From: Lingula anatina
Taxonomy: Eukaryota; Animalia; Brachiopoda
Assembly: GCA_051362555.1 (NCBI GenBank)
Contig: CM120642.1
Span: 10,478,001 to 10,542,000 of the forward strand
DNA: 64,000 nucleotides
Reading direction: 5' to 3'
Part shown: positions 20,426 to 59,276 of the stretch, piece after piece
How the letters are laid out: the number at the start of each line of letters is the position of its first letter
Position numbering within the stretch: the stretch's first letter is position 1
Notes under the pieces: generated by a model
Seen by the model: the letters and a program-made list of their open reading frames with translations, nothing else
What the model was told of the DNA's origin: nothing
Databases searched by the model: none
Made by a program: the position numbers and the translations under genes

Positions 20426-20640
20426 CACCCCATTTCCATAGATTAGATCGACCTACTTTAGATCGACCTAACTCCCTGGGGGTTCACGCTAAATAGCTGT
20501 CAGCCGGGCGGACACGAAAGTTAATTATCCCCTTACAGCTTGTAGTAGGCGGGACGGACATTTAAGTTGGATTATCTGAAAGTAATCTAGTGAGACTCCC
20601 CGCGGGGATAGATCGATCTAAAATCTATGGGAATAGAGCC
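20426..20640 (+). mobile_element. MITE family A, near full-length copy about 160 bp upstream of the orphan gene ATG
   Basis: CATTTCCATAGATTAGATCGA..CCTAACTCCCTGGGGGTTCACGCTAAATAGCTGTCAGCC..GATAGATCGATCTAAAATCTATGGGAAT, colinear with 11190-11399. Confidence 0.8.
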
Positions 20641-22978: not shown

Positions 22979-23255
22979 TTTTTACTTGTTCACACAATGG
23001 ACAATAGAAGTGTCATCCCTACTGAACCAGTACTTTGGGGGAGATAAATGACTGTGGAATGATATGCTCCTGGTATCATTTTATTAACATCAAATTTCAC
23101 AAAAAAAAAATGTAGTAATTTTTACTTGTTCACACAATGGACAATAGAAGTGTCATCCCTACTGAACCAGTACTTTGGGGGAGATAAATGACTGTGGAAT
23201 GATATGCTCCTGGTATCATTTTATTAACATCAAATTTCACAAAAAAAAAATGTAG
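22979..23255 (+). repeat. Exact 137-bp tandem duplication (22979-23115 and 23119-23255)
   Basis: Both copies run TTTTTACTTGTTCACACAATGGACAATAG...AAAAAAAAAATGTAG and are separated by TAA. Confidence 0.9.
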
Positions 23256-28152: not shown

Positions 28153-31100
28153 ATGGGAATAGCGGGCCAGTTAGGTTTGCTCTTACTCAAGGGGTTAACA
28201 CAGCAGCTTAGATATGCGGTAAGTCAAAAGTATAAAGAAGGAAAGGAAATCTGAAACCTTTTATCTGAAATTCTAACTGTCTAACTTTTGATTCAGGAGA
28301 GAGAGAAAGAGGAGGAGGGACAATGTCTGGTAATTAGAACGCAGTATTTCGTAAACGAAACCAAATTGATAATTATGTGTACAGAATCATGAGTAGTCTT
28401 TATTCATAATCATCTTACATTTTGTTATTAATATCTTATCATGGACAAAATTAATTTCCCTTTTCAGGTTGTTCTAGGAGTGAAGGTGGCATGGCCGCTC
28501 GCCATCTTTACAGCGGTGGTGGTGGTGAGGGTCTCTGTGCCCCCGGAAGAGAAGACAAATTGTAAGTCACCTCGTCGAAGGTTTTCAACAGTTTTTTTTT
28601 CGTGTTATTGCATGCGCCATAGCAGGAAATTTTCACACAAAGTGTCAACACGACCATAACGTAAAAAAAAAAATTATCATTATTAGGGTCTTATCTACCA
28701 ATATAAAAAACTCCCTCATCCAAATAAATACATGCTTATTGACATATAAAGAAATAGAACTTATATAAATGATTAAAATATAAACAAATACGAAAAAAAA
28801 AGATTAAATGAAAAAAATGTTATGTTGAAAATCGGCTTTCGACATTGGCACAATTCCACCAGAGGATAAACTGCACATTTTCCGAATAACAATAAGTTTT
28901 CAGCGTAAGTTTATTCATGATAAGTTTCAGGGAATATGTATTTTAGTTTTGGGGTCTAGAAGTACTTAGAAAATCCTTTGATTCTTCTTTATTGTAAAAC
29001 GGATGCCCCATAAAATATAATTTTATAACATGTCAAAGTCCAAGGGGACGCGGGAAATGTCAAAGGTGCCGCTGGAAGGGTGTCATAGGGGGATTTACAT
29101 AAATTATATGAGTGGGTTCGTTATTCAAATAGAAGAAGCATTTGAACAGCTCTTCTTTCACGATTTTTGAGGCTAGGGAAAGTGGATATCAAATCAGTTT
29201 TTATATTTTTATATGTTGAATATATTTAAAAAAATGAAAATAAATCGAATCAAAGATATTTGTTGATTTTCCACTGATGTAGCTATCTTCAAAAATAAAC
29301 TTTACCATTGATCAGTCACATGTTGGCCAAAAGCTAACAAAGCATGTGTTTTTACTGCTTATAGTCGAAGAATCCCTCATTGTTGTAGGCTACAATTATC
29401 AAAATATGTGCCATTTATAACTAATGTTATCATTTATTTCTTTACTATTTTCAGGTAACTATACTGTTTATTCCCTTCCAAACTCTGGTGGCCTGAGTTT
29501 TGTGCAGTCATTTGTCTGCAATATCAACAACACGTGTGCCAATGAAGAGACTGCGGCGGATAACACGGCGGCTGCGGGCACCGCTTCAGCTAGGTAGGCA
29601 TGTGAAAAAATTCCATAAACATATTAACGTTGTTTCGTGTAGGCCTAAACAAAGGGAAATTGATCGATAGGTGTGCATAAACATTTTGCTTGCTTTCCTT
29701 AGACATGTCATCGCCTACCTGTTTTTTTTTTTTTTTTTTGAGGGGGGGGGCGTCTGTTTTTTTCTACCGTTGATAAACCTCTTTTAAGAATGACAAAATT
29801 AACACTGTAACAGGCTTTGTCCTAGCCCCTTTTCACATCATGTGCTCCTTTAATCTGAATCGAAACATTTAGGGTGCGTTCACAGTGAAACTATTGTACT
29901 AGGTAGTTCGAACTAACACCGCCGGCACACTGGTTGAGTAGGCCTACAGTCAGCATGAGTCAGGTTAAAATTAAGGTTAACTAATCCGTTTAACTGGCCG
30001 TGTCGAGCCTGCCCCCCCCTCCTCCGGTTTCCGTTTAAATGACTCTGTTGCGTAATAGCAGGGTTATTATTTTATCTCTAAAAGCTACAGTCGATACAAA
30101 AAGGCTAGACGATATAAAAAGGCTAGCTATTTAAAGAAATGTAGGGCCTACTTGTACCGACTTATAAACAGATGCCAAACAAAATCCGTCCATTAACCTT
30201 TGTGTAATGCTGTACACAGACAAACAAACGGTAACGAAAATATAATCTCATTGTTATGTATACCAGTTTTTATGTAGATATGATTTGAACGTGTACAGCG
30301 ATAGCTAGGCCCTCGACCATGGGCCTGGCACAGCTAATGCAGCTGCACCGAGCGTGTTATGAGGTTGTGTTCTTCAGGTTGTCCACGCTGTTCGCAGAAA
30401 TGGAGCCGTTGCTAAATGACAGCCGGACACGTAGTGTCCTCAATGGGCTCCCACAGACAGCAACGCTTATCAAGGCCCTGGCCACAACGCTGGAGACACC
30501 AGAAGTGCAGGAGTTTCTAGGTTTGTGATTTGGCGTAAATTTTGCACTGAAGTGGTGGGGTACCACAGTTGTGCATTGTAGGCTACTGGTAAGCAGATAA
30601 GAAGCAGATAGCTTGAAGCTGTAGTCGAACAAGGCTGGTCGGTCAGTGCTTGGACATAATAACGGTCAGTGCTAGTTACAAGTATATATGTGCTTTGTCG
30701 TTTTCATGCTTAAAATAAAGGACTCTGAGTTTCTGTCCATAGTCTTAGACATCAGTAATTCAGAGATGTTTGATAGACGATTTTGTTTATGTTTATTCCA
30801 GGGAAAAATTGGACAGTGGCAGAGCTGTTTCGAAACCCTGATGAAGTGAAATCCTATCTAGTGACACAGCTAGGAGTGCTCCCAGATTATGTGGTGGATA
30901 ACATATTGGCTGCTACACTAAACATGACAGGGGTATGTATACATTGGGTGTCTATCATTCAGTGTACAAATTTTTGGGTACTACCTGTACGTTATAGCTG
31001 GCACATTTGGGATTTTAAGATGGGTCAGTGTGGATGCATAATTCCCAAATGAGAGATTGTCATATTTTCAGCAGGGTTTATGAAAAGAAGATATTTAGGC

Positions 31101-34100
31101 TTCGTTCACATGCAATGTCTATTTTCTATTTTCTATAGATTTTCTATTTTCGGTATGTCTTATGATCACGGTCTGTGCACTGAATATCCCGCCGCGTAAT
31201 TACTGGCAGCGCGAGCCAGTTACTTATAGTAACTTATAGTAACTGGCTCGCGCTGGCAGTAATTACGCCGCGGGATATTCAGTGCACAGACCGTGATCAT
31301 AAGACATACCAAAAATAGAAAATAGAAAATAGAAAATAGACATTGCATGTGAACGAAGCCTAAATTGTTTTCAAGATTTAGTATAGAGATGATAAAAAAC
31401 TTAAACTAAGTAACTATAGTGTTACATTCAGATTTATGAAATACAAGTAGGTGAAATGAAATCTGACTGCAATTTTAAATTAAAATTAAATAGAATCTAA
31501 CATATGTTGGATCATAGATTTAATTATGTGCTTCAAATTTTTTATTTTTCTGTAATTATTGAATATGTTTCCTTTCATTTTTTGGTCTTCAGCTGTATAA
31601 TCTGACTGGCAGCATCAACTTCAAGAGCATTGTGTGTGGTACAGACATGTTGAAGAAATATCTTGTCTTCAGTTCTGCTGTAGATGTCTCCGCTGTGTCC
31701 TCTAGTTTATGTGGCATACAAGATGATCTCATTCCTGTCATTGTGAATAAACTACAGACAGAAATTGATGTTGCAGAAATTGTCAGAATAGTAAGTATAA
31801 TTTCCAGAAACTGGAAGGCTGAGAGCCAATGTCATAAAATCTACTTCAAGAACAGATGCATTAATTGATACACTGACCAGGTATTGCTAGATGAAATTTG
31901 GTCTTCTTTTGATAACTTATTAATCTATCATTATAGTTCGATAGCAAAAATTTTGTAAAGTTTAGTTACTATCTTATACATATTTGAGACTGTTGACATA
32001 TATTTTCATTCAGCTTTGCAATATGAAAATATACATCATGTGTATTTATACTCATTATGGAATAGTCTCTAATTATTAATTTATGATCAACTTCTAATAA
32101 AATATTTGCTGTAAATGTAATTCTCCATTCAGGCTGCAGTGTTCAGTGATCTGTATGGAGAGTATACACTGGGAAAGAGCCTGAGAGATGTTGCCACAAT
32201 GATTGACACAGTGCTCCAGTTGGCCTCACTTCAGCCTTGGAACAGTGTTACGGAGTCTGACCTCCAGGCGGCGTCACTGTGGCTCAAGGCAGCCTCAAGT
32301 GTTGTCAGGTCTCTGGAGACTTCCCAGACACTGGATTTTACAAGGTCTGTTACAATTTCAGTACAAAGATGTATTTTTTAATTAAAAAAAACCTGTGAAA
32401 ATGTGAATGTGATGTGAAAATTTCATGATTTTTTTATGTACTAGAAAATATAGACAAATAATTGGTGTGGGAAGAATATTTTCATTTGTTTATGAGGAAT
32501 TAGAAACCGTTCTGTTTTACATGATTGCTGTAGATTTGATTTTTGCATGTATAAGTATTCATGAAAGTATTTTAAAATAAACATTATTGCAGTAAGTTGT
32601 CAAGTTTTCTAATATCAAGGGAATCCATTCCATATAATTTCCACATTTCTTGCTCACAACAAGAAACATATCAGTTTTTTTTTTCAGCCTGATAATCTCT
32701 CTGGCTATTTACTTGTGTTGTAATGATATATTTATATTTATAGCATCTCAGCCCTGTTAACGGCAGGAAGCTCTCACATTCAAAACAGCAGCTGGAGTTC
32801 ACTTGGTCCCATGGTCAATGTAGCAAACTTAATGATTGTCACTTTTAATGACCAACTGGACAGTATGAAAGGTACTGTAATAATATTGCAATTTTATACA
32901 GAAAGGTTAATGATATTCATATTTTCATTTTTATATGCATTTAAAATTACTACACAAAAGAATACCTATTTTTGATAACTGTATATATATGATATAATGA
33001 GCAGCACTTTATCTTTGAGATTGCCCATTTGTTTAATTTCATATAACAGCATGACTATCTGATGTAAATCAGTATTTATTTATGAAATTCTTAACATTGA
33101 AGGTGTACAGTGTTAAACTGATGGGTTTCTTTCTGTCTAGCTATGTACAACAGTTCCTCCATGTTTGGCAAGTTAATGAATTATACCATCATGTATGGGC
33201 CAGACTACATTGAAGCTATGGCAGTTACTATGCTGGATGAGCAAAAGGTACTAGTAGTAATATGTATTTATATATGATTATTTAGTATACAAATGTATGA
33301 ATAAAAATTGTAAAAATGCAAAGAATATACTCATACAAGAGGCAATTTAGCAATGATGCATTGTGCCATAGTCACAATACTGACGAACAAGCAGAACATT
33401 TGCTATTTTATGATTAAGCAGTTGTAACTGTGTATTTGTATGTATGTATGCAAAATGCATCGTACATTTGCACATATGGTATGTGCATTATAAGTTACGA
33501 TTTCATTCAGACTTATTTATACATTTGGAAAGATGAAGGTTTTGATCTTGGATATTTACTACCTGTCTCATTGAATCTTACACTCAGGTTATGAAGTTGT
33601 AGATGCTTTAAAGAATTTGGTGCCACTGTGAATTAGGAGTGCTATAAATATATTGCAGTTGCTGTAACTTTTCTTAATATTTGACATTTTTTATGTACTT
33701 AAAATTTTCCAGCTTACCCAACTAAGCTTAAATGCAGACATGATTGGGCTGTTCTGTAACTACACAGAGTTTGTGAAGTACTTCAGTCTGCCGTCTTATG
33801 TACCTGTGTCACAAATTCACACAGAGGTCTGCACCAACATGGCCGCCCTCAGTGCTCATATGACAGCTGCTATGGGTGGGAATTGGGCTACAGCTATGGC
33901 ACAGGTGATATAATCTGTTCTGATGCACAAATATCTCTAATGTTTGAAACATTGCTTATACTACTAGCTGTAAATAATATAATGGCGTTATATATTTTGT
34001 AAGTTATATCATACCTACAGTGTATGTATGAAAACACTTTGGCAACTGTATGGCAGTGGTGGGATCTTGAATATGTGCAGAAAAAAGTACTAGTGGATTT

Positions 34101-37100
34101 TTCAATAATGCTTTTAAATTTTTTTGTCCTCTTAGTTTCACACAGCACTTAACAGCACAGCCAGTTCAGCTGATCTCCAGACCACCCTGAACAATGGGAA
34201 ACAACTACAGAGCAATCTAGAGAGCTTCCTCACTGTGCAGTCTGAAACAATGGCACATTTACAGAAGGTCAACTGGACAAGATTCTTGGAAGCTTTTGGA
34301 AAATATGATGCTGCAGTGAAGACCCTCATGAATTCATATATGAATGAGTATGAATAAAATTGTGTAGTCATATACCTTAATAAATGATATTTTTACCTCC
34401 TCCCCCCCCCCCCCCCCCCAAGAAAAAATAATGATGAAATGACAAAAAAGTGAAAGAAGCGTTTTGAAGACCTAGTTTTGCCATAGATTTTTATGCTAGA
34501 ATGAGCCCAATATTTCTTTGGATTAAACCATAAAAATAAGGACACATTTCCTTTCATTTTTGAGAGCTCAGTGCTGGTATCACTATCAGTTTTGATGCTC
34601 GTCTTTTAAGATTGCTTGCATGGATAAACATTAAGTTGTTAGGTTGAATACAGAGAAGTAGACTACTTTTTCTCCAGGGCAGAAATTTCAGCAAATTTTC
34701 AAATGATAAGTTAGGCATTAAATGTCCAATTTTGTGTGGTTCTGGTTTTATTACCTTAATTATGTATTTGGCCATTCCAGTTCTTCCAGCTACAATCAGT
34801 ATATGTATAACATGCTGAGTGCAATGGATGCCAGGATGGACCAGAACAACACTCACTGGCAGATGATGAAGATGAACATGTTTATAACAGATCATGTCAT
34901 ACAACACATGAATCAGCAGCTTCTGAGACAGCAGGGTATGTGCTATATGTAGAATATGTGCTTGCTGTTATATTTTGTTTGTGATATACTATACATGCTG
35001 TACATCATTGTTACAGTGGTGACATTAAACTGAATAATATTTTTTCTGGTAATGGTGTATTATTCATTGTTTAATATTCCTCAGGCTTAGGCAACAATGT
35101 ATGGCTGTTTAGATTTATACAAAAAACACAATATATCATATCCTATTTAGTAACATTTATATTATTTTTAAGTTAGTTGTTTAGAAGACTTTTTATATAG
35201 AAAAATATTAATGATTTCAGCCATGTATAGTCAGAGCACAGCTATTTTCCAACTGGTCAATCATACACTGACTCATGGAGTGGACATTATCCCAGCACTG
35301 GTCACTGCCATGATGGACACACAAAAGGTGGCTTGAGTTATGACCCGGTTGTATTTAAGACTATGAAATATTGAATATGCTTGACTTGATGATAATGACA
35401 ATAGTAATAGATTATAATGATGAAGCTTGCAACAAAAATTTGGTGCAACTTAAAATGATGAAAAGATCATAAGATAAATTTACTTAAAATACAATAAGAT
35501 ATGTAAGACCTCAGATGAAATGGTAGATTAAATTTTTTAACAATAAAATAAATAATCATTATATTACTGATTATAACATTCAGACTTTATGAAATTCCCT
35601 GTAGAGATTTCAAAGTATAAGGTTTGCAAAGCTGTGAAATTGATGTCAGTTAAAATTAAATATTGTTTTCTGTCCTCTTCTAGGTTCTCAACCTGACGTC
35701 ATTCACAGATCCACTTGCATTGATTTGTAATCCCAGCATGCTTCAGTCCATTTTGGCCCTACCTTCATCTGTGCCAGTCACGGAGATGACATCACTGATA
35801 TGCACCAATGTCACCACCATCATAGCACAGATTACTGCTGATGTTGGAACAATGACACAGGTAAGGAGTGTGATAAATTGTTTATCTGTCCTTTCATTTT
35901 CTTAAGAACAAAAGAAGCATTGTATTCGATACAAAGTCTGCAAGTATTATTATTGTTATAGAGCTGCGAGTCATTTTTGTAAAACAGTTCTTGGCAGCAT
36001 AATTTGCTATCTGCTATAATTAAACCAGTTTACAATCATTATTATCTTGGTTTTATTCTGATATATATTCACTGTTTTAATAATTCAGCACTTTTTACGT
36101 TTTTTTTTTCATGAAGTGGGGTCAAAACCTGACGGCTCTCCTGAATGACACCTCTGCCATGTCCAGCTTCAACTTCACTCACCTGTCCATTCATTCCACC
36201 GAGTTACAGACCAACATGATGACCTTTCAGCAGAGTGTGGCAGCAGACATCAGCCGTCTGATGACTCCTGGCAGTATTAGTGTCAACTGGACACAAGTGA
36301 CAGAAAAATTGGGGTCTTTTGGTGCCACTCTTCAGACTATGTTTACTTCAATGGGGAATGAGTATGTTCCAATATTTCCATTTTTAGTGTTATAGTTTAG
36401 TCATAATATCAAGTTGTGCATATTTGAATGAAAAGGCTTATTTAAGTAAGATACACAGCAGTAGAAAAAGTCATATTAAAATTAATTGAAATGTTAATCT
36501 TACTAATACTGATGCTTTAAATTAAATTGAATGGCACTTTTTTGATGATGAGTTTATTAATGAAAGATCGATTTTTATGTTTACCACTTTGTTTTCATCC
36601 AGTTGCTTTCTCATTCTGTACCCATATTATTCCACTTGTATTTTACATTTATTTTCCCATATTTTAGTCCATCATCAATCACGGCAATGCTGGAAACCCT
36701 GGATGCAGCCTTAGTGAATGTGACATCTTGGAGAACTGTCAAACTTTACATGTCCATCATGAACACAGCAGTGACAGCTGTAAACACAGACATGCAGAAT
36801 GCATTAGGTGTGTGCTTATCATTGTGCTGTGTGTGTATATTTATGCCTCAAAAAACACATCCGCATGTATGTGCAAGTAAGAAAAATTAGATAAAGAAAT
36901 GTGCTTGTATGTTGAGAAAGAGAGGGTGGGAAGGATAGAGATGGAAGTTTGAAATTGACTTAATTATCTGCCAGTCATAAACCTTCAGTTAAAGCAGAAT
37001 TCATATTTCTAGAAAGTCTGTTAGGATACAGAGTGTTTGATTAACACTATTTCACCAATTAAAAATTTAATCGTGCATGAAACTAGTCACTTTGCATACT

Positions 37101-40100
37101 TTCAGCTAATGGAATGCGTGTGAGGGACCTACTACCCACAGCTGACTGGCTCCATGATTTCATCAATACTACCATCCTGGCCACCAAGGAGGTGGTTGAC
37201 CACTATGCCAGTAGCATGGTGTCTCCAGACCAGGTAGAATAGAACACTACAGAAAGTCAGTTACTGGTAGAATTTTAAACAGATTTTCTCTAAAATTTCA
37301 GGCAATTTTCCAAAAGTTTTATCTAGGATTGAATACGTGTATTTGTTGTTGTTATACTTTGTTGTATTTTCAGGTCCTGTTGGGTCTACTTCAAATTCCA
37401 GTCTTAAATATCCAAGCTGACTCTGTTCAAACTACAGATGTGACCAATGAAACCCTTGGTAATGTTACTGAATCAGCCAATCAAACCCTTACCAATGTTA
37501 CGGAATCAGCCAACGAGACCATTACCAATGTAGCAGAGAGTGTTGTGCAGATGACCTTTAACATTTGCAATAGCAGTGTTACAATTGCATCACTGTTGGG
37601 TGTCACCAACTCTGCCAATCTGGACAGGCTGCACGAAATGGTTTGTAATTCCACCATACAGACGGCAATGTTAACTGAGCTAATGAGTGACTCCGCACTA
37701 TCTGCTATACTACAGGTAAAAAAAATTAGAATTGTTTTTATCTGTGAAGAACAACTCACCATGTTATACGTACTTAATTTGTATCACTAAGCCTCATATT
37801 GTCTTTTTAAAACAGATGTACATGATCATTCATATAGTTACATAAGATTAATCATTTAAAATTAGTAGATTTTTACCTAAGTTTTGATTGGATAAATCAC
37901 ATTATTTTAATGCTCTAGACTGTCTACAAATTCAAAGATTGTATTAGAATAGTAGTTAACCAACCAGACATTCCTTTTAGCTTTGGCAATGATTCATTAT
38001 TTGAAAGCTCTAAACCCTTAAATTTACTTGTATATATAAAATTTACGGAACTATATTATGTTTACTTGGTAAGAAAAGTTCATTTTGCTTTGATTTTGTG
38101 AATAAAAAGGCAATACTGTAATACTTCTACATTTTGGAACTTTTCACTCTGACTTCAGATGCAATCTGTTAATCTGACTGAAGTGCCAAATGTCCAGCTG
38201 AACTGGACAGCGGTCCAAGGCAATATGAACTCCTTGATGGCCACCTTTATGCAGCTGATGTCCTACAATGGCACATACCTTACAGACACACCCATCACCT
38301 CTCTCCTGGGGTCGCTGGAGACACTACAGCAGTCTATGATGCAGTTCAATGTGACAAGGTGTTTGATATATAAACTTACCTGCAGAAAGTGTAGCTTAAT
38401 ATGACCAAGAACAGCTGTATGTTAGAAAAATTCAACTTTGACTTTAATTGTGAAAATATTGATTCAGAAATGATTCCAGAAGTGCCTTATTATCTTTTTT
38501 TATGGGAAATCTGATAGTAGGAAAAAGTAAAATGATATATAATGTTGGGCAATAGAAAATAAACAAGTGGATTGAAAAAAGTATATTATTGTTCTTTCAG
38601 TTATTTGAGCAGTTTAAGCAGTCTTTATACAATTCTGGATGATCCCAGCTTGGCCAACAACAGCATGTTGTCAAGTGTCCTGAATGTGACCCAAAGCTAC
38701 CTGGGCACAATACAGAGTCAGCTAGATCTCATGTCAGCACAGTTGGAGAAAATTAATGGCAAGTATATTATATAATAATAATAAAGTTTTATAATTATTA
38801 TGTGATATAGTAATTAGTAGATGTTATTAGCAAATATTTATGTTAATTATGGCATGTACTATCCAGGGTGTGTTTGATACAGGGTATATAATTTTAGAAC
38901 AATTTGACCTTGCCATTGTAATTTTTCACATCTGTAACTATATATATATATATATATTCAATAATGGTACGTGTGTCACAATAAAGAGTGATAAATAAAA
39001 GTGCATGTCGAGAATTGCACTGTGTGCATTGATGTTTTTAAGTATTTTTGCCTTGTTTTTGTCTAAATTTTTTTGCTCAGAACTGATGAGAAGAAATATT
39101 ACTGATTAAAAATTACTTAATTATTTTAGCTAATACTACCTCCATCATAGTCCTGGAGGATTTTCTCACTGCTGAGGTGAGGAAGGTTACAGCACTCATT
39201 GATAACTTGCCTGTACTGATGCAGTTTGCCTTGGAGTTTGTCACCACTGAACATAGGAACTTTTCACAGGTAAGTTTAATGACATTGTGTCTTAATTAAA
39301 ATTTATAACCTAAATATCTTTTACTCTCATATACCCACATTTACATAACATTCAAGTTACTTTGATTCTGATTTGAACTTATTGGTGCAAAAAAAAAAAA
39401 AAAAAGAAAAAAAAGGAAGTCATTAACTAGTAGTAATTAGGTAAGATATGCTTAAAATATGTAAGTATCAGACTCTGTGCCTCATTTTTCAATGATTTTA
39501 TTATTATTATTTTTTTTTTGTTTTGTTTTTCAGTTTAACCAAAGTCAAGAGAATATCATCGTGTCCCTTTGCTACAATGTGACCACTTTTGAGGCATTTT
39601 TTGGAGTGAACACCACCAACAGTGAGGTGAATTCAACACACCTGCAGTCTCTGCTGTGTGAGGCATTACAGCTGAATACAACTACACTGGTGACAGAACT
39701 GACTCAGAGTCAGAGCACAGAGGTTGCCAGTATGGTAGGTAATAAGGCTTTGATATTCAGAGCCTAACTTATTAATGCAGGTGAACTAACCAGTATTGAA
39801 TAAATGAACACAAAAATTCAACATCGCCTTGTGCTGGTGTATGTTGATATAAATACACATACATACATACACACATGTACATGCACTCACATACGTGCAC
39901 ACACACATACACACATGCATCCCTTCGTACAACACATACACACATGCTTATGTGCACATCACAATTATTTTGTAACAATTGCATCACACAATTGTTGATT
40001 TTTAATGGTTGTTTATTTTACATCATCATGCTGCTCATCTTCAAAAAAGCCAAGTATGTTATGTGAATGACAATATTATTTCAGATCATGTCAGCGACTG

Positions 40101-46100: not shown

Positions 46101-46562
46101 TTAATGGTCTTGGTGTGAACCACTGTATAGTCGTACAATTCAAATACTTTTTTCTTTTAGATTGTACAAGTCCTCAGTAACTCCAGCATGCAGACTGGAA
46201 ATGACACCAACAGTACCAGCAGCACCATGACTTTACCATTCTCCTGTAGTGCCACACTGGCTAAAGAGACAGAGATCAGAAATTACATCACCAACTGGAT
46301 TAACAGCACCAATATCACTGCCCTGGCAATGTCTTGTATGCCGCAGAGTTATGGGGACATGTGAGTATCGGAATGTTCTTCTACAAACTGCAGTCCATTA
46401 GGATGCTTTTTATTTACATTAACTATGACATTCTTATTTGTAGACAATGATTTACATCTATAAATCTTTAAATGCAAACACTAAAAATTGAATGGGTAAA
46501 GTTTACTTATAGACTTCTTTAAATCTTCTAAATGAAGCTGTCCCTGGAATATACTATTTTTT

Positions 46563-46594
<32 letters not shown>

Positions 46595-49500
46595 ACATCT
46601 AAGTGTTGTTATGAACAGCTATTTTCCATTTCCCCTTTGACAAATTAATTTAGGAAGTAGGCTGTAGACCAACATCTATGCATCGTAAGGAACATCATAA
46701 ATTTCAAAACACAATATATTCTGTAAAAAAGCCTTTTATATCTGCCAACATCCAGTGTGTCAGGGACTTGCAGCAGTCTAGAGAGTATGTTAAGTGCAGA
46801 CCCGGGTTACAGCTCCATGGCGTCATACTTTGCTGCTCTGGCTCCTGTGCTGGAAGAGGTGTCTAACCAGCTGATGGGCAGTGGAGGTAAGGTTTTTAGC
46901 ATTATGCAGGTCGGTTAATTATGTATGAGTATTTAGAAATATTGATATTATTTCTTCTCACTTAAAAAAAAAATTATTTAACATAAAAAATAGAATATAT
47001 TAAACAATAGAAATGTGGAGTTGTAATGTTGGCAGTGAAGTTTATGTTAGGTGAAAACATTGATAATGTTTATTAATAGATATATTACTTATTTATTTTT
47101 GCAGCATTAAAAATTAATATTTATCTGGGCATATTTGTGAGTCATATTTTAATTTAAAAGAATGACAGATATTGGACATGACAAAAATAAAAACAAAAAT
47201 GATGCCAATTTTACATTAAAACACATGGCATCCTTTCACACTGTTGGTCCAGCATATTACTTAATCGGGAGAGGAGGGGGTTGAGAATAAAAAAAAAATA
47301 ATAAAAAAAAAATTATCACAGGGGTAAAGTTACTTTCATTCAGGTACATCATGTGATTGTGTTAGGTGAACTCAGTAATAATATGTAAAAGGCACATCCA
47401 GACACATTGGAATTAACTTTAATAGTAAAGACAAAAAAAAAAAAACCCTAACCAAGATAGGTATTAATTTTAGCTTTTGTTTTTGTGACTTTATTTGAAT
47501 CCTATTACATATAAATATTATTATTTAGATACTTGAAATGTTCTAATATTGATTTAAAAAAACTGTCAAGAAACATTTTAACTTTTCAGACATAAATGAT
47601 TTCCTCTGTGATGCTGTATCTGGTGACGTCTCAGCTTCAATGAGCAGAGCCATGTCTATACAACAGAGCATGCAACAGGTAAGGTTTTCTATAGCTTAGC
47701 AGTTTAACAGTACATGAGATTGGTGATGGCGGTATTTCAGAAATTTACCAGGATCTGCCCTTAGCTAAGATATGAGGATGTGTTTTGATCTGTTTATTTT
47801 TATGGTATTTGGTGCAGTAAATGGGCAGTTATGACTTTAAAAATGATTAGTAATATGTGTTTGATTTTGATTTTATGTAGATAGGTAAAAGAGGCAAATT
47901 ACCTACATGAATTTCTGTTAAACTTACAAACTGTATGTTTAAAAAGAATGATAAGGAGCAAAAAAATTTTTTTTTAATAAGTAAATCATATATATCTGAT
48001 TTTATCTCGGGGTGACAAAATGAAATATACTCTTTTTAGCATTTTAATTGAAGTCTTGTTAACATTACTAACTGACACTAATTTTTTATACCCTTAATCC
48101 TGAGAAATAATCATTTTTCAACACTATCTTTCATATAGCTGCTGTCCCTGATTAACAGTACCAGTATGGACGTTAGCAACAGCAATAGCAGTAACAGCAC
48201 TGCTACACCGTATACTGTCAGTTATAACTGCTCTGATGCTATGACCTTGGTGACAAAACTGACTAGCCTTGCTAATCCAGCAACATGGGCTCTTAACTAC
48301 ACCAGAGTTGTACAGTGCATGCCCTCATTCACTGAAACATCATTGTAAGTATTTCAATCTCTTTATTTAGATAATCTACACCAGAAAATATAATCATCTT
48401 GATTCAGCAAGTCTATAATTTTTGTTGAGTTTTTGTGTTTAGTCTTGTATGCTTGCATTTACTTTATGTGTATCCTGTCATGGATTTTAAAAAATATTAT
48501 CAACAAGGACTCACTGATAAGTTGAAATATTCAACTACTGTTTTTCCATTTTCATTATGTGTATCCAATTTTAAAACATTCTTGAAATATATCAAAATTA
48601 CCAGGATTCCCTTTGTTTCTTAATATCCAGCCTGACTGATACCTGTTCCTCAGTGAGTGCCATGTTAGACCCTGCAACTAAGACCATGTTTGCACTAGGG
48701 AACCAAGCAGCCAAGATGGTCCATCAGCAGGCTCTGGCACATCTGGGTAATTGCATCTTGGTTATTAATGTATTTGATTGGCAATGGTGCTTCATGGTGT
48801 TTTGTCTAGTTCATTTCTTCATTATTAATTGTGCAGAAGTATCCATGACTTTGCTCACTCTGCTTTGACAGGAGCTTCTGTATTTGTGCATTTTTTTATG
48901 TTTAAGCATATTATATGCATTTTCTGCCATCAAAATGATTTCTTTTCACCTGTGAATGTGCTCATGTATGCCAATCCTATTGGTGAGGAGTAACCTTAAG
49001 CTTTCAAACAAGTATTCAGTTGTAAAAAGGTTGAGAAGAGGATGCATCATATTTATCACATTGATATCCCACTTCATTGTAGATTTCCCTGGACTAGTGT
49101 GTGATGCTGTGGCCATGAATCAAGCTGGACTTATGGCTAAGATAACCAGCCTAAATACAACTGCCATGGACATCATGGCGATGGTGAGTTGTTTTATATT
49201 GGCTCTCTCCATTCAGTCATCTTCCATATTGTATATCTCCATAAACTTCAGTGTAGCCAGATCCATGAATCTATATATAATTGGTTTTCTATTTTTTTCT
49301 GTAGTATTTATTTAGGCATTAAAAGATGCTATCATTAAAAGGTATTTTCTGTATATGATTTATATTTTCAAACTCCTGTTATTATATTTTCTGAAATGTG
49401 TAGGTGATTCACTTTGTGTCCAGAATATTTCAAAATACTCACCAGAGTACAATGGCCTCCAATTATACTGTAGGTGTAAAACCAGTCAATTTAATGTGAA

Positions 49501-52500
49501 AACTCCATTGTTGCAGGTGTCAGCTGTAATGAATGGTACAGAAACCATTAGTTTCAACTGCTCAGAGATCGTGTCCTTATCCACAACCTTGACAGATTTC
49601 ATCAACCACACAGCAACCAACTTCAACATGTCTGCCATGACCAGTTGTCTGATGGCCTCTCAAGATGTTTCCAAGATGAACACCACAGCTATGTTATATG
49701 GCAGCTGCGTGCAGGCAGCTTCCACAGGGGCTTTACCCATGTTTGCCTACATGCAGGCATATTTGGAACTGATGACTGATTATTATGGAGTGATGGAGGA
49801 AATGATGTGTTATGGAATGTCTATGAACGTTACTGCATTGATGACAACTGTGACACAGTTGCAGAGTGATCCTGTTTTTATGACAAAGGTGGGTAGGAGA
49901 GTGCGTAAGGTGAAAGTGGCATTTATGTATTTTCTTGAATAGGTGAAAGTGGTATTAATGTATTTTCTTGAATAAATGAAATTGCATTTTAATATTATTG
50001 TTCAGTTCAAATCCACAAATTCAGTTTGTAGACAATCCCCATTAAAGCAGCTCATATGTCTCTGAATCACTTGCCAGTTGATTATTATATATCCTGATTT
50101 GACATGCATGTACTTATTGTTAAGGTATAAAAACTAGAATAATTTGGCTTCAAATATTTTGATTTAAAGAAGTTTGTAATAATAATTTATTTATACATTT
50201 GGAAACCTTAAGTTGAAGTTTTCAATTGGGACTTATTTCATGCTTCTTACATCATTAAAAAGATATGAACTGCAGCTAAATTAAAGTTCTAGCTTGACAT
50301 ATATCTTTTAAGATAATTAAAATTGTTAAGGTTATTACACAGATTGTAATAACTAGAGAATAAAAATAAAGAAGATATAAATGATATAAATGCCATTATA
50401 TAAATGCCATTATAGAAAATAATCTGTAGTCTTATGGGTTAATTTGGAATTTGGAAAGATCTCTCTTATCAAATTTTTTTATGTGCAGATGGGAGAAATG
50501 ATGACCATGAATTTCTCTTCTCCGGTTAGCTGTGATAGTTTGGCTAGTAATTTCCACTCTGTAATGACAAAGATGAACACCACCGTGCACAATGGGGCTG
50601 CAATGTTCACCAAATGTATGGCCCCAGACATGGCACATATGGACTTTGGAACAATGTGAGTTGATGAATAGCAGGACATAGAGCTGCAGTCAGAGAAGAG
50701 ACAGGCTTTCTGACAAGTTTTGTGTAAAAGCATTCTTCTTGCAAAGGGCATTTTTATCTGTGAATTGACATGAGGTAGAAGGATTAATTTACAGATATGA
50801 TTCCTTCTATGACTTTTAGTTTGTAGCTTTAAAAGGGTCCTTAATTTATCAGAATGTCTGTATACAGTTTGTGCATGTTAATCACATGTTTGATCTCGTA
50901 AACCTTTTTCATTTACTTTATACAGAAACTGTATTGAGCAATAGGATATATTATTATTTAAAAAAAACTTGCTGTGTAACTCTTTCACTATTCTTTCACT
51001 TTTCCCATGTTCCAGGATGAAGCAGATGCTTGTCCAGGTCAATGGGTACATGAGCTCTGATCCCAATATGGCCACCATATGGACTCCTATGTACTTGGTA
51101 CTACAAAATGTCCTCAGTAACAGCACTTGGGCATGTAAGTCCATTGGGGGTATACATTGTGAAATCAAAATCATAGTTACCCATCCTATAAGTTAGAGCA
51201 TTTATTAAATAATAGCATGTTTTTGCAAAAAACTTACTGTCATTAAGCATGTGCTACATTTACAAATATTTTAACTACAATATGTTACATACATAATTTT
51301 AATTTATTAATTATTTCCCCTATATTATTTCAGCCATGACCAGCTTTTCCTCCATATTAAGTATTAATCCTGGTCACCTGCCTGACCTGGCTCAGATCAG
51401 TGGAGCTTCCTCACAGTTGATTGCAGCACTCATGAATTCTACATTTAATGTTAATCCGGTAAGTGCATTTATTATTGCTTTAAAATTTATTATAAACCCC
51501 GTCAGTTGTTGATCCAGCAGGGTTATAACTACTGAAATTCAGTACAAATCAAAACTTGAAATTTTCTTTTGGGCTATGTTAAGAATTTGGAAATGAGATT
51601 CTTTTCATTTGTGACATATTATGTTAATTGTTCATTATAAAAGAATATGTTAATTGCAAGGAATAGTGATTATAAAAATCTTTTATATGAGAGTGAATCA
51701 GATATATGACCAAACCTCCTAATCATTTTCAGACAACCATAGCAGCAATGAGCCGAAATGACTTAGAGTCTGTCCTGTGTAATGTGACAGCCCTCAGTCA
51801 GGTGATCTCTCTCCACCCCGCCTTTCAACTGACAACTGCCAACATCAGTGCTGCCATCTGTGGGCCAAATAAAAATGAAACGATCAACACCCTTGCTCAG
51901 ATGCTGGACATCCAGAAAGTCGCCATGGCCGTAAGTTTCTTATGTAGCAGTTATAATAACATATCTGTGTTGTGTGTCAACGGTTTCACACTACAGGAAG
52001 AGAAGGACACAAGAACATGAAACATGACCTTTGGTTGTTATATCATATTTATTATACTATTCTTTTGTAATTATTTTTAATTTTTATTGAGAAGATTATG
52101 AAACTAATGATGTTAAATGTCGGTTTAATTTCGTCTCTCATTTAAATGATTTCTGATGTCAGTTTAATTTTGTCTCACATTTGATACAATATCAGGTATT
52201 TGTAATTATTTTTTTCAGTTTAAATTAGTTATCATATGCCAGAGTGAAAAGTTATTTATTTGGTGAACTTGTGATAAGAATAAGCTGTGAGGAATGAATT
52301 ATTTTAAAATAACTGTGCTTTTTCTTTTAGTTTTTGGAGACAGGCGTACCTTCTTCCTTCAACTCACAGTGGGCCTTGTCTGTGCTGAACACTACAACAA
52401 ATCTGGTGACCAGCCTGTCAGAATTCACTCAGATTGCTACACTGATGACCAACTTCAATGTGGAGTCCCTAGCAGCAGCAGCACCTAGTCTGGTGGCTTT

Positions 52501-55500
52501 CTTCAATGGTGGAGGAGCAGAGACAGTCTTTACCAAGTAATTTTTTGTCTTATTGCATATATCACTGTTTGCATCTCTCCTTTAACTCTTTTCTCTTCTC
52601 CATACCATTTTTAAGAACTGACATTTAAACTCGTTCACTAATTTATGATTACATCTAGAATGAAACATTTAATTTAGAACAATATTATTCTTTTTGAGAA
52701 AGTGGACTAGTATTTGGGTAGATATTTAGTGATATTTGCATGTGTATATTTACATATAATTTGATGTTGTTACAGCCTGGATCTGCTGATAAATGATTTC
52801 AAGAACATAGTTAGCAATGACAGCACTGCTCTGGCTTTGTTGAATGATGCACAGATTATGTCTGCTGGCATCAAAGGTCTCTACTTGCTGCAAAACTTCT
52901 TTCCATTGCAAGGTATGTAAAACCCTTTTAAAACAAAAATTGCAATCTCACTTAAAACAGTGTCTATACATATTGCCATTGTATATTAGAATTAAGCTTA
53001 GTTGCTTAGTTATCATATCAAACTGATTTACATTTTTAAGTACATGTGCTTTTTCTGTTCTGAATTTCAGTTCAACTGAAGCAAGTGTTTTTGAATGAAA
53101 CAGCTATGGAGGTATTCCTCACTGACACAGTCAACTTGCCCAGTGCTGTCGCTCAGGAAATCCTGGAGGCTAACTTGTCTTTTGCAGAGGTAAAAACAGT
53201 ATAAAGGTCAGACTACCTTGAAGATTTCAAAGCAGAAGATGAAGATATTGTTTGCACTTTCGTGCATTTGAAATTTATATGCACTCCTTTTTGTAAGTAT
53301 ACTTCTGTGAGTGCATGAACACAGTTTACGTAGTTTGGGATTCCTGTGCCACAGCAGGAGTTTTGCATCACAGGACAAGGTGTGATTTCCTCACCACACT
53401 AGGTGACAGCTTGGTGGAAAAGTGTATTTGTATAAATTGTTATGATTTTTAGACAAATATAGACTGAACTCACATCAACACCTTTATCCTTTTTTTGTGT
53501 TTGCAGCTTATAAATATTATTTTCCAATGAATATTTATAGTTCTAGTTGTCAGACAGACTGTTTAGGTGTTTTCAGTTATTCAAAAGGGATTTTAATTTC
53601 AGATGATCAACTTGGGTCAAGCAGATCTGAATGTTAAGAGCATATTCTGTGATCCTCAGAAGCTTGGGAAACTGCTCATCCTTAACAACACAGTGTCCAA
53701 TGGGGTAACCATGGCAACTGTTTCCACAGCCCTCTGTGCCATGAATGAGAATCAGACTGCAAGTATAACCCAGCAGCTACTCAGCATGTTGGAGGTTGGA
53801 GAACTTGTCAAGAGGGTAATTTTTGCAATTTTGAATCTTATACACATATTATACATTTTTCTAAGAAATATAAGATCTCCCTGAATAAAAAGAATAAGAA
53901 AGGGCTACAAGTTAATTTGAATTATAGAAATTTAATTTGGACAGAATTTATCAATAGAAATATTTGGAATTTTATAATTGAATATTTCAATTTTGCTTAG
54001 AAGTAATTGGAAAAAAACTGTAACAACCTACCAAGTGAATATAAATGGGAATATTTTTAATTTAATTTTTTTCTACATCATGTAATACTGTTATTCTCTA
54101 TTTTTACAGTTTGTTACCTCTAGCGTTGACTCCTTAATTCATCAGTATAACGTGTCATCAGAAGACGTCAGGAGTGTGTTCCAGACAGGGACCAGTATTC
54201 AACCTAACCTCACTGTTGCCTTGAGCTCTGTCACCAACTACACTAATGGCTTGAATGTCTTCAATTCAGCTGATGGTACTATATCTGGTAGGTTCTCTTT
54301 GAAACAATTATGATAGGAAATTGATAAACTATCTACTGTGGTAAGTACCCACTGGAGATAAGTGCAGTTTTAAAGGTATAGTTCATAATGACATTATAGT
54401 TCATTTTCTCCAGTATTCCTTGGTTATAGAACACACCTTGGGACATATTATAAGTTGTATGTAATATGTCCCTATGTAATACTTAATTACACTCCACTTT
54501 CACTTGTTATGTCTTACCTGTAAAGGCAAGTGTATCTTGATGGGAGTTTAACTCCTTGCTTGTACAGTTAAAATTAAGCATAGAGATTTTCTGATTGATA
54601 AGATCAATTCCAAACAATAATCTTTCTTCTAGGGGCACAAGCTGTGCAAGGAATGTCTGAAATGCTATGTGGGACAGAGACCGCCTTCGACATATCATCC
54701 TCGTTTTCAAGGGAGTCTGCCACTGGGGAGAGTCCCAGCACCAGCTCTTCCACTACCAGCTCTGCTCTGTCTAGTGTGGAAATACCTACAGACCTTCCAG
54801 CCTCTTGTGAGGCCTTGTACCAACAGGTGTGCTGGGAATGAAATGTTAACAAAGAGAAATGAGTGAATATGGATGGATGTGTATAATGGGTATATAAAGT
54901 AATGAAATATTGAATTTAAGAGGAGATATAAGTAGGTATATTTAATGTACATATCACACTGGCAATTTTGAAAATCTTATTTTAATCCTTTCTGAAATTT
55001 GTGACTTGCCTTTCACCATTTTGTATATAAAGCAGGCAAACAATATTGCACAGATAGAAATCATTCTGTGGTGACTGTACTTTGGCCTTTCTGTGACAAA
55101 AGACCAACATTCTCCCATGTTCCTTGGCTGTGATCACTTTCACTTTTAATTCATAGATCCAGAGTGTTGACTCTGGTGCCATCATCTGGACATACATGGA
55201 ACCATTGATGCGAGGGAAGGTGCCATTTTATCCAGCCACATCAGAATATGCTGCCATTATGTCTGAGGTCAGATACATGTTTATTTTTGTATAGAATTCC
55301 TAATAGTAACTGATGTAAGAGTTTGGGATTGAAAAAGTGAATAAATTCAAGAAATGGAAAACTTAACAGATGTTTCAAAGTTTCCATTTCATTTTCATGT
55401 AGCAAATAAATCAAAACAATAGGTGATCTGATTTATCAGTTCTATCCAGTCATGTGTAATACATGGGAATAATTGCAGCCAAGTTGTGGTTTTGGTATTT

Positions 55501-58500
55501 AGCATGTTTTATGCCAGTGCATAATGCTTTGGAATGAAATTTTTAACTTTCTCATCTTTTAAAGAGCAACATTTTCTAGATATAGATCTATAACTTATAT
55601 TCAGCAATATTCCACATGCAATTTAACAATAGACTAAGAAATGAAATATTTCTTTTCACAGACCAACTCTACTTTTGAATCCCTGGCCACATTTGTTGAG
55701 TTAGCCAAATCCTGGGCTAATGGAGTCACTGGTCTTCAAGAACTGCTCAATATTTCCTCCCAGATGATAGTTATAGAGGTAAAAATGTTCAAACTCTTCA
55801 TTCATTTATTTATGTGATATTTTGCCATTTAAAGAGACAACTATCAGTTTCAGTGTTTTAGTAAGTGTGTATTAATAATGAAGACATCCATATGTTTTGA
55901 ATAAAACGTGTTATTTACTAACAATCTGGTTTGTTGCTATTATAAATTTAAGATGGATTTCCAGAAATTAGAAAAATTTTATACATTTTGATTGATGTCA
56001 TTATTCAAACATCTACAAAAAATTTCAGAATTTACTTATTTGCAGTCACATCAGGAAGAGGATTGACCCTTTATTTATCAAAATTGAACCTTAATTTTTC
56101 AGAATGCATTGAAAAGTAACTCTTTTGTTGGCGGTGCTTTGGAAAATGCCTTTGGTGTCTCAGTGGACGACATGATGAGCAGCTTAAACAGCTTTTCATC
56201 CTTCTCAGCAGAAGACCTGACCAAACTGAAGGCAATGGCTGACCTGATTGTCAACTACACTGAGTGTTTTGATTTGGACCGTATGGAGGGTTACGGCTCA
56301 GAGGCAGAGCTAGAAGACAGAGTGCAAGCATTGGGATCTGGAAGTCTTATGGGAGGTTAGTTTGGAATTATCAATTATCAAGTGTTTTATGGTATTTGTT
56401 TCCATTGTACAGTATGATCATGAATAATGTGATAGATAATTTGAATACATAATGAATTATACTTATCAGAACACTGAATAATAATTATAATAATAATAAT
56501 AACAACAAACAACAACAAACAAACATTCAACATTAATTGCATTCCAATTATTGCTTAAATTTAGAGCATATGGCAAATGGGACACTTGACCGCAATCAGT
56601 TTTCTGTTTTTTCCTTGCCTGACTTTGAGGTTTTTCTATTTCTATTTAGCTGTGGTGTTCAGAAACTCCTCCAGCAGCACCAGTAGCAGGAAGAAGAGAG
56701 CTACAGCTTCCATCCCTAAGCATGTCAAGTATGAGATTAGGATGGACATAGATAACGTGGCCAGGACGGATAGAATGAGAGATCTGTGAGTATCTTTGCT
56801 ACACATGATTTTTGTCAACAAACTCATTTAACAATGTTACCATTTTATTGAATGAAGTTTAAATGATCAACATTATTACTTTTTATTTAATAAATCTCAA
56901 ACATGTCTGGGCCAGTACTGGTTGAACTTAGCATATTTCATACTTTCATATTTTATACTAACATGATATGTATTTTTTTAATTTTTTTTTACTTGTTAAT
57001 ACAGGTGGAGAGATTATAATTACCACATAAATGAAAAAAAAAAGAAAAGCCTTTTCTCTGTTTTTTGAGTATGTTATTGAAAATAAGAGAAAATATTTTT
57101 ATAGCATTATTTATTTGTTCATTAAATAATTTCTTTATTTGTAGTATTTGGAGACCAGAGCCGTCTGATGATTTTGGGGAGGACATGAGGTACATGCGTG
57201 GTTTTATCCAGCTCCAGGAGATGGTAGAGCAGGCAGTGATCAAGGCACACACAGGGAAGACTGATATACCAGCAGTTAACCTACAGCAGATGCCTTTCCC
57301 ATGCTATGAGAAAGATGAGTGAGTACTGAAAAGCAATTCTTTACTTGTATATAGGACATCCTTTTGTAAATACTTCCTCTACACAGTGTTAGTTATTCTA
57401 CCAAAAGACATTGAAGAGAATAACTACCAATTTTAATTCTATTTGTTAGTACTTTGAAAAGATTGTGCTTCATGTGCGTACCTATTGTTTCAGCTTTATG
57501 TACTACATGGCCAATTACCTGTTCCCTGTGATCATGTGTCTGTCCTGGCTGATAGTTGTAGCTGTGTCTGTGAGAGGGGCTGTGTATGAGAGAGAGAAGA
57601 GCAGGATGGAGGTGAGTGGCCAGAACTTGACATGCCTGTTTGTTGTATTGAAAATGACATTTTCAGAAGTGCTCTATCTTTTGGGTTTTAAATAAGTTTA
57701 AAACACAGTTCCAAATTAAATTTTTTAGTTAATTTGGAAGCTATTTTGTTGGGGTTTCACATACTTATGGCTATAATAAAAACTACAATTTATGTGGGTT
57801 TATTTATTTGCTACTCTTTTTGCATTGACAGCAAGGCTAGTGGAAATCCTGATATCTTTTAAATATATTAAGCAAAATATTGATAACATGGAAATTCTAC
57901 AGGTGGAGTCTTTTTTTAAGTAATTTCATTTCTATTTCAAATTTGTAAGATTATAAATATCATGCACTAAATCATGGGCCTTGGCTAATACATGATATTA
58001 ATATGTCTTTACAGTATGTGTTTTATGCGTATCATTTCTGTTCCAGATTCTCCAGATCATGGGCCTCCGCCCTATACTCAGCTGGCTGTCCTGGGCCTTG
58101 CTGGTCTTTGTGGAAATGCTGATCTTGTCTATAATGGCACTATTCCTGCTGAAGGTGTCTGGGTCTCTCAGGCACACTGACATGGGGATCTTCTTCCTCT
58201 TCTGCTTGGACTTCTCCCTGGCATCCATGGCTGTGAGGTGGGTCATTGCAGATAAATGGAACTTCTGAAACTGTTAATGGCTTGCTCCTGAATCTCTGGT
58301 TCATCTGTAATAAAACTTATTAACATAAAGGTTTTTTTTCCTTCATTATGACTCTGAAATTTTATTTGGATTTTTCTTTTACAAAACAGGACTATATTTT
58401 AGTGAATGTATGTGTGTGTACAGTGGGTGGGGGTGTATTAAGTGGTGTTTAGTAGCAAGGTACTTAGTAGCTGTAAGAATGCCATTATTTTCAGTTTGAT

Positions 58501-59221
58501 GGTGGCAGCCTTCTTCACCAGTCCTGGTCTGGCCAGTCTCACTGCCGTCATGGTCTTCCTCATCATGTACCTGCCTTATGTCATAGTCATCAGCATGGAG
58601 GTGCACATTACCTTGGCTGGAACAGTTATTCTTGTGAGTGAATTATATTTAACAGGAAGCCTAGAATCATGTTTTTATTTATCTCTTAAACAATATGTAT
58701 AGATGATATGCTATGATCGAATTAGCCTTGTTATGCTTATAATTTGGTCTTTATTGAATGGACATTCATTACAATGTGATTGCAGGGATTGCTTTGACTG
58801 GAGTTGTGGAATGATGCTTTTAATGATGGTTTTCCAATTTTTCTCATGAATTTTTTTTCTTCAACTACATTTCATTTTAATGTTATTAATCATTTGGATG
58901 CATAATTTTATAACCAATAAATTATATTTTCATTACCAAACAGCAAAAAATTTTCTTGCAGTGCCTGTTCTCCAACACGGCCTTTGCCTATGCTCTGGCC
59001 ATCATGGGACGGTATGAACAGCAGGGCGTGGGCATCAACTGGAATAATGTGATAGTTAACCCGTACAAAGGAGTAGACATGAGCTTTACTGGAGCCTGCA
59101 TCATGATTCTAGTGGACGCTATTATATACCTGTTGATAGCGTTGTTTGTCCTTATTGCTGTACCAAGTGAGTATAAAGTTCTGTTGCATAGAACTATAAG
59201 TTAAATGTCCAAGGTCTGAAT

Positions 59222-59276
<55 letters not shown>

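Follow-up and report, generated by a model that had tools for sequence, protein, structure and literature searches.

A lid-module array in the giant first ectodomain of an ABCA12/13-related transporter of the brachiopod Lingula anatina

We analyzed a stretch of 64,000 nucleotides (nt) of AT-rich animal DNA from the brachiopod Lingula anatina (assembly GCA_051362555.1, contig CM120642.1, positions 10,478,001 to 10,542,000 of the forward strand), hereafter the window, which carries a gene for an ABCA transporter with a very large first ectodomain (ECD1). As judged from exon phases and profile matches, about ten duplicated exon cassettes make up this ECD1, and the majority are copies of the small lid of ABCA1 and ABCA4. 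The trees place the Lingula gene as a pro-orthologue of both ABCA12 and ABCA13, and giant ectodomains of this kind probably date to the bilaterian ancestor. In the literature reached, which included few subscription papers, we found no published description of the repeat architecture, the predicted loop topology or the protease motif, or of furin processing of ABCA12/13.

Gene model and exon cassettes

The gene was modeled in 61 exons from an ATG at 28153, refined by hand from splice-site candidates (Table 1), and the joined frame contains 0 stops over 3,294 amino acids (aa) up to the window end. A first-pass annotation made from the letters of the window had counted about 45 exons and about 7.5 kb of coding sequence between the first two transmembrane segments (TM1 and TM2). 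This count was confirmed: exons 3-47 occupy 29455-57318 exactly and comprise 45 exons and 7,555 nt in one frame, with a single open frame in 43 of the 45. Forty-three of the 44 introns have a GT donor and one has a GC donor, all 44 present an AG acceptor, and GC-content is higher in exons than in introns (respectively, 0.46 and 0.30). An additional candidate exon (33511-33587) broke the frame and was dropped; it is also absent from the RefSeq protein. That protein (XP_023932994.1 of L. anatina, our P0187; 4,287 aa) is gap-free and colinear with the model and 98.0% identical to it (66 differences over 3,294 aa). Since XP_023932994.1 is a computed annotation, it corroborates the exon chain and does not stand for a transcript.

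Hydrophobic segments were found at aa 23-41 (TM1) and aa 2580-2786 (TM2-6), with none above threshold between them, and the membrane layout is ABCA-like: TM1, a large ECD1 and TM2-6, with TM7 and the second ectodomain (ECD2) further on. The Pfam matches of P0187 (ABC2_membrane_3 twice, ABC_tran twice and R1_ABCA1) are those of a full ABCA transporter. Both nucleotide-binding domains (NBDs) retain intact Walker A, Q-loop, signature, Walker B glutamate and H-loop; NBD2 lies outside the window and was read from P0187. The gene encodes a full-length ABCA transporter with two intact ATPase sites. We consider it a putative lipid exporter because of its family membership and the data on ABCA12, ABCA13 and the Drosophila protein CG34120.

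In three relatives, one transcript appears to join ECD1 and the pump. The contigs P0144 (6,229 aa), P0147 (5,329 aa) and P0209 (4,595 aa) encode the ABCA N-terminus and both Walker A motifs in one open reading frame (ORF), which covers 98%, 95% and 92% of the contig, respectively. Six such contigs were checked, including one that is fish ABCA12-like and two that lack the very N-terminus. Since P0144, P0147 and P0209 leave no room for introns, we infer that they are spliced mRNAs joining a giant ECD1 to the pump. The first-pass annotation had allowed that the exons at 28-54 kb might belong to a separate gene or be mostly skipped; the single frame, the single RefSeq protein and the intron-free full-length contigs of relatives all speak against this.

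ECD1 is ~2,531 aa long, compared with 520-760 aa in short paralogues, and its largest exon measures 372 nt. It contains 84 sequons, when 38 ± 5 are expected (500 shuffles, maximum 55), and their density of 3.3 per 100 aa can be set beside 2.6-2.9 in the two short ABCA1-like ECD1s checked. Relative to the rest of the protein, ECD1 is enriched in Ser (11.5% vs 6.7%), Thr (10.3% vs 5.8%) and Met (6.4% vs 4.2%), and its Met/Thr richness exceeds that of the 11 other giant-clade ECD1s compared. The hydrophobic moment is raised at the helical angle of 100 degrees (z = 6.5) and not at the strand angle (z = -0.6; 30 shuffles). The abundance of sequons and of Met, Thr and Ser, and the helical amphipathic character, had all been noticed at first sight, and both observations held.

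Intron phases across exons 3-40 follow the cycle 2,1,0,(0), with ten 2-1-0 triplets against a maximum of 6 in 100,000 shuffles, and a C-x(22-28)-C core was found in seven phase 0-0 exons. A profile of the full module (~220 positions, trained on invertebrate giant ABCAs only) yielded 7 matches in Lingula at 34-97 bits (reversed-control maximum 14.4). The other giants present 2-29 matches each at a threshold of 12 bits, which is below the reversed-control maximum of 16 bits, so that these counts include some noise. Of the 23 short ABCA1/2-like rows, 20 scored above control with the same profile, which in most of them matched once, at aa ~95-290; a partial second lid copy was found in two deuterostome short proteins. 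A profile of the seven Lingula cores, searched against 1.84 billion representatives, retrieved 66 proteins, the best with 25 matched stretches. Ten large matches were looked up, and all were ABCA-like at the start or had ABC domains; nine of them came from a hemichordate, a crinoid, an annelid, two bivalves, three gastropods and a wasp. The hemichordate Ptychodera (P0001) presents 25 cores with a spacing of ~225 aa.

A 48-row core profile matched human ABCA4 at residues 197-257 (E = 3.6e-4) with both cysteines aligned, and the seven-row Lingula-only profile did not reach ABCA4. The lid of ABCA4 spans residues 138-271 and is unresolved in cryo-electron microscopy (cryo-EM) (bioRxiv 10.64898/2026.06.25.734683). 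Human ABCA4 exons end at c.160, c.302 and c.768 (PMC5749174), and the corresponding Lingula exons end at c.160, c.299 and c.771 with equal phases. By profile match and exon layout, the ~220-aa cassette module is homologous to the ABCA4 lid. A second, type-B unit is interspersed: its profile gave five matches in Lingula, one in 15 other giant proteins and none in any vertebrate row. The five-fold type-B block thus appears specific to Lingula among the proteins sampled.

The first Lingula module is closest to the first modules of a limpet, a nemertean, an oyster and a starfish (30-37% identity), and neighboring modules of Ptychodera are 92-95% identical. Judged from these identities, the lid array is old, yet still turning over. 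The repeats are visible by phmmer and exon phase alone, as BLAST self-comparison of ECD1 gave no internal match. Searches with single ECD1 exons returned no Pfam family at cut-off (0 of 8), no relative in the PDB except for exon 47, and no homologue among proteins of 101-2,000 aa, the only sizes covered by that search; the ESM Atlas gave no usable match.

Table 1. Positions in the window of the parts of the ABCA gene and of a reading frame nested in it
Feature	Position	Strand	Remarks
ABCA gene, exons 1-61, aa 1-3294 of 4,287	28153..63972	+	runs beyond window end
Exons 1-2 (66 + 94 nt): N-terminus and TM1	28153..28561	+	ends at c.160 like human ABCA4 exon 2
Exon 3: N-terminal ECD1 base, C75 and C81	29455..29593	+	align to ABCA1 C75 and C81
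Exons 4-6: lid module A1 (aa ~99-256); its 198-nt phase 0-0 exon carries the core C206/C231	30378..31790	+	ABCA4 lid equivalent
Exons 7-22: four 4-exon type-A cassettes	32133..39734	+	phases 0-2, 2-1, 1-0, 0-0; core exons 10, 14, 18, 22
Exons 23-35: units of type B (~135 aa), most with three exons, differing from type A in Cys pattern	40085..51458	+	
Two-exon ORF, 207 aa, GT-AG, phase 0, nested in the 4.7-kb intron 25	41988..43182	-	BH3-only-like; separate from the transporter
Exons 36-40: last full type-A cassette (C2129/C2158), preceded by the penultimate type-A core	51733..53815	+	
Exons 41-47: ECD1 tunnel and base (aa ~2199-2573 = ABCA1 ~264-630)	54110..57318	+	C2256 ~ ABCA1 C309
RKKR (aa 2482-2485), furin-type motif in a loop inserted into the ECD1 base	56688..56699	+	
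Exons 48-51: TM2-TM6	57494..59166	+	exons 49-51 sum to 535 nt, as human ABCA12 c.3295-3829
Exons 53-59: NBD1 and region after	60088..62912	+	Walker A, Q-loop, signature, Walker B catalytic Glu and H-loop intact
Exons 60-61: TM7 and start of ECD2	63207..63972	+	

The introns of the gene hold features of their own. The nested ORF, which accounts for the one long intron, carries an RxRxxS motif followed by a BH3-like LRKISDDL, and Pfam gave just a weak PUMA match (E = 0.099). We take this ORF to resemble BAD, and it constitutes a candidate invertebrate BH3-only gene. Intron 5 contains a near-perfect palindromic element (31093-31365) similar to a miniature inverted-repeat transposable element. CpG counts per 2 kb fall from ~50 (28000-31400) to ~10 (32000-64000) just inside the ABCA gene, as would be expected if the gene body were methylated and the promoter in front of it were not.

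Relationship to ABCA12 and ABCA13

We reconstructed trees from the end of ECD1, both transmembrane domains (TMDs) and both NBDs. With IQ-TREE (LG+C20; 28 rows by 1,200 columns), all sampled giants, ABCA12 and ABCA13 formed one clade (support 100/99), and FastTree recovered the same clade on 63 rows. The 35 rows dropped from the larger set included the long branches of Cherax, Vespula, Brachionus and Araneus; Dimorphilus was left out of the 63-row tree, its halves coming from different fused genes. Short paralogues from the same phyla fall outside the giant clade, and separate short paralogues exist in molluscs, nemerteans, the annelid and echinoderms. Placing Lingula among the short ABCA1/2-like paralogues was rejected by the approximately unbiased (AU) test (P = 6e-9) at a cost of 99 log units. 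The placement of echinoderm giants within the clade was weakly supported (63/25). ABCA12 and ABCA13 are sisters (100/100), and the Lingula gene groups with the pair rather than with ABCA13 in particular; it also lacks a giant ECD1 exon. A 2002 title by Prades reportedly names a 4.8-kb exon in ABCA13.

Intron positions are consistent with this placement. Three splice positions of human ABCA12 (c.3294, c.3829 and c.4579; PMC6503032) correspond to Lingula introns 48, 51 and 56 in the same phase, which is 3 of 3 testable positions. The equivalents of c.3294 and c.3829 are 535 nt apart in both genes, and two of the matches were mapped via squamate ABCA12 at a constant 3-aa offset. ABCA4, with a boundary at c.2160, presumably has no c.3294-type intron; this was not counted as evidence.

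Giants of 4,000-7,400 aa were found among the matches listed (best 120 of 784 and best 120 of 124) in chitons, bivalves, gastropods, cephalopods, nemerteans, a priapulid, chelicerates, decapods and echinoderms, with no cnidarian giant among them. Overall, giant ABCAs span 3,000-7,400 aa across protostomes, echinoderms and hemichordates. The Lingula ECD1 is among the shorter ones of the clade; those of most molluscs and of the starfish sampled measure 3,000-5,000 aa. A few ambulacrarian giants contain extra domains: C-type lectin in Saccoglossus (P0008, 660-757) and Asterias (P0173), and WAP in Anneissia (P0015, 532-571). In vertebrates, ABCA12 reaches 3,400-3,900 aa in squamates, and the fish proteins listed measure 4,450-5,000 aa, the range to which that search was limited, which indicates that a giant ECD1 is not exclusive to ABCA13. 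Indeed, a large ECD1 has been named as a feature of ABCA12/13 (PMC13161189).

Vertebrate ABCA12/13 resemble the Lingula protein in sharing one TMD/NBD clade, an oversized ECD1 and the terminal lid module. Profile-profile comparison recovered this last module with probabilities of 92-96; along the whole ECD1, module matches lay at three sites in ABCA12 (50, 87 and 92) and two in ABCA13 (56 and 95), against a reversed maximum of 13.5. With the core half of the profile, only the terminal copy was strong; N-terminal copies number one or two and are weak, and the module was undetected by this comparison in the middle of ECD1. The short core hidden Markov model (HMM) matched 0 of 8 ABCA12 rows and 3 of 10 ABCA13 rows, and with the full-module HMM, 9 of 10 ABCA13 rows showed the terminal copy, but just 2 of 8 ABCA12 rows scored above control. 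Unlike ABCA13, in which no module is detectable in the ECD1 middle, Lingula presents an ECD1 made of 45 small cassette exons with clear repeats. The N-terminal region of ABCA13 has been described as lacking homology to known human proteins or conserved domains (PMC7948424), and ABCA13 has been called a mechanistic outlier (PMC13161189).

Arthropod proteins, among them Drosophila CG34120 and Tetranychus tetur27g01890, have already been published as a clade sister to human ABCA12/13 (PMC3724490), so that ABCA12/13 orthology in invertebrates is not new in kind; the present data set did not include these two proteins. A 2021 preprint groups CG34120 with ABCA1/2/4/7/12/13 jointly (bioRxiv 10.1101/2021.03.03.433580). 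The accessible text of both reports contains nothing on the size or repeats of arthropod ectodomains. The first-pass annotation had proposed an independent expansion and a phylogeny based on the NBDs. Our trees contradict the independent origin: Lingula lies inside that clade, and its first module resembles those of other phyla.

Loop topology, lipid handling and alternatives

Lingula residues 5-165 align to the N-terminus of ABCA1 and residues 2232-3065 to the rest of its first half, which indicates that ~2,100 residues would stand in place of the lid. C75 and C2256 align to ABCA1 C75 and C309, which form a disulfide tied to apoA-I binding and efflux (PMC13607428). Since both ends of the array thus map to one spot, the array is predicted to be a disulfide-closed loop and is probably not a straight conduit. 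The long conduit initially envisaged is therefore disfavored.

An AlphaFold2 model of aa 1734-2576 (24 rows) is largely helical. Its residues 466-840 (aa 2199-2573) match ABCA1 264-630 and the equivalents in ABCA4/7 with Z of 8-11.6, and Foldseek returned 21 matches to this segment at E <= 0.001, all of them ABCA proteins. ECD1 thus ends, after the array, in an ABCA1-like tunnel and base. P0037 is a fragment of an orthologue and shares 58% identity with a bivalve giant; AlphaFold2 (75 rows) modeled its first module with a predicted local distance difference test score (pLDDT) of 83-97 over the core. For the 368-aa module model, Foldseek returned nothing at E <= 0.001 and VIA reached no Z >= 5 among 48,161 chains, solved apolipoprotein- or saposin-like lipid-binding domains included, the core alone having been barely tried; this is expected if the lid is missing from cryo-EM maps and is no proof of a new fold.

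The base loop of Lingula contains an insertion with RKKR where ABCA1 presents a short loop, and R-x-K/R-R is a furin-type site. Among spiralian giants, 42 of the 45 located rows carry the motif in this loop (the other 2 of 47 were not located), as do 3 of 6 ecdysozoan giants (4 not located). In contrast, 0 of 46 short paralogues carry it there. The background rate is 0.005 per window of sequence, and these rows are related rather than independent events.

We lean, with slightly better than even confidence, toward an ATP-driven lipid exporter whose lid array acts as a built-in lipid acceptor loop. Three features suggest the acceptor role: the amphipathicity, an array that sits at the tip of the tunnel, and the predicted closure of that array into a loop. 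ATP hydrolysis would draw a phospho- or sphingolipid or a sterol into the tunnel of the ECD, as it does in ABCA1/7/12. Instead of one lid, the lipid would encounter at the tip a loop of about ten amphipathic, glycan-coated helical units, and the loop would take it up in a vesicle lumen or extracellularly without a soluble apolipoprotein, unlike ABCA1, which requires soluble apoA-I. Maturation likely includes cleavage of the base loop by a proprotein convertase, after which TM1 and the C75-C2256 bond would keep the N-terminal piece attached. Among relatives, ABCA12 loads glucosylceramide into lamellar granules (PMC13161189), ABCA13 accumulates cholesterol in vesicles (PMC7948424), and CG34120 is needed for lipid export from neurons and for neuron-to-glia lipid transfer (bioRxiv 10.1101/2021.03.03.433580). 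The accessible parts of PMC5039799 and PMC6747505 add nothing on the ectodomain.

Several observations weigh against this interpretation. The tree rows lacked human ABCA12/13 and vertebrate ABCA2/4/7, and the outgroup consisted of two ABCA3-like halves of fused gene models. The modules are mutually just ~20-25% identical. The model of aa 1734-2576 has a predicted template modeling score (pTM) of 0.39 and a mean pLDDT of 61.5, with values <50 in the type-B part, and therefore does not fix how the modules pack. The furin-type motif was found in 0 of 4 located ambulacrarian giants (1 not located) and 0 of 17 ABCA13 (1 not located); among ABCA12 proteins, 14 of 83 rows, mostly from fish, have it, as does 1 of 7 from squamates. 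Absent from ABCA13 and patchy in ABCA12, it is thus not essential to the clade. Finally, ECD1 differs from the RefSeq allele at 61 of 2,531 positions, compared with 5 of 763 elsewhere, a tolerance of change that is spacer-like.

Indeed, the array could serve as a spacer, in sorting or in a glycocalyx, directing the pump to a class of vesicle or spanning a lumen without itself holding lipid, with only the terminal lid working with the tunnel. This would agree with a copy number that varies from 2 to 29 profile matches, with the recent near-identical duplicates of Ptychodera, and with the first and last modules being the best kept, vertebrates clearly keeping only the last. ABCA13 without its N-terminal region also loses vesicle localization (PMC7948424), but with the deletion starting at Met2892, TM1 and a portion of the base are lost too, so that the array is not isolated. 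Internal copies, moreover, have retained the cysteine pair and the amphipathic helices over >500 million years, and we regard a pure spacer as unlikely, while giving it some weight. Alternatively, the modules might stack into one long hydrophobic conduit, as a hairpin or superhelix, through which lipid would travel to a remote membrane or matrix. The units are all copies of the lid, for which an AlphaFold model has been described with a cavity continuous with the tunnel (bioRxiv 10.64898/2026.06.25.734683), and the period of 225 aa is regular in hemichordates. However, a straight tube is impossible with both ends pinned near the base, a hairpin would need each ascending module to have a descending partner, there is free variation in copy number and in the B units in between, and pTM is low; we consider the conduit improbable. 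A very improbable alternative, already largely refuted, is that a short ABCA1-like gene gave rise to the giant ECD1 separately in this lineage, or that the exons belong to another gene or are skipped. The expansion of the B block in Lingula only, among the proteins sampled, the annotation of several orthologues as split genes (P0001, P0002 and P0004, without NBDs) and the possibility of skipping whole cassettes in frame are compatible with it. Against it stand the trees and the AU test, the single RefSeq protein, the intron-free contigs of relatives and the separate short paralogues of molluscs, nemerteans, the annelid and echinoderms.

A bolder form of the acceptor reading, which we hold as possible but on the doubtful side, is that the bilaterian ABCA12/13 ancestor acquired an apolipoprotein by fusion, in the form of a belt of 10-25 lid modules closed by a disulfide, filled by the pump and matured by furin near the membrane. 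The 3,000-residue N-terminal region of human ABCA13 would then be an eroded descendant, and the invertebrate modules would provide a stand-alone handle on the disease-mutated ABCA4 lid. If true, pump and lipoprotein scaffold would be one polypeptide.

Neighboring features and significance

Upstream of the ABCA gene, the window presents protein kinase 3' exons at ~400-2050 (+) and a multi-exon, flavin amine oxidase-like gene at ~3300-14200 (-), both read by eye. An intron of a neighboring gene contains a Ty3/Gypsy-type long terminal repeat retrotransposon at 6397-10885 (+), with gag and pol over three ORFs (reverse transcriptase, RNase H and integrase) and matching terminal repeats at 6397 and 10849. 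A stop-free frame of 690 codons at 17086-19158 (-) has one hydrophobic segment, a long Ser/Arg-rich tail and no Pfam match. We also observed a dispersed repeat family of ~185 nt (11198-11404, 16279-16377 and 20461-20645) and an exact 137-nt tandem duplication (22979-23255).

ABCA1, ABCA4 and ABCA7 share with Lingula the order TM1-ECD1-TMD1-NBD1, the tunnel and base fold, the cysteine pattern, the layout of exons 1-6 and the lid module, but they present one lid and no array. In ABCA4, the lid harbors about 17 pathogenic sites and 52 uncertain variants (bioRxiv 10.64898/2026.06.25.734683). The invertebrate genes show that the lid is a duplicable and, by prediction, self-folding unit. Their modules offer expressible units for structural and lipid-binding work as well as a deep lid alignment, and loop closure and furin processing are testable predictions. 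Finally, our results suggest that many "uncharacterized" invertebrate proteins of 4,000-7,000 aa, together with split gene models, may belong to one family.

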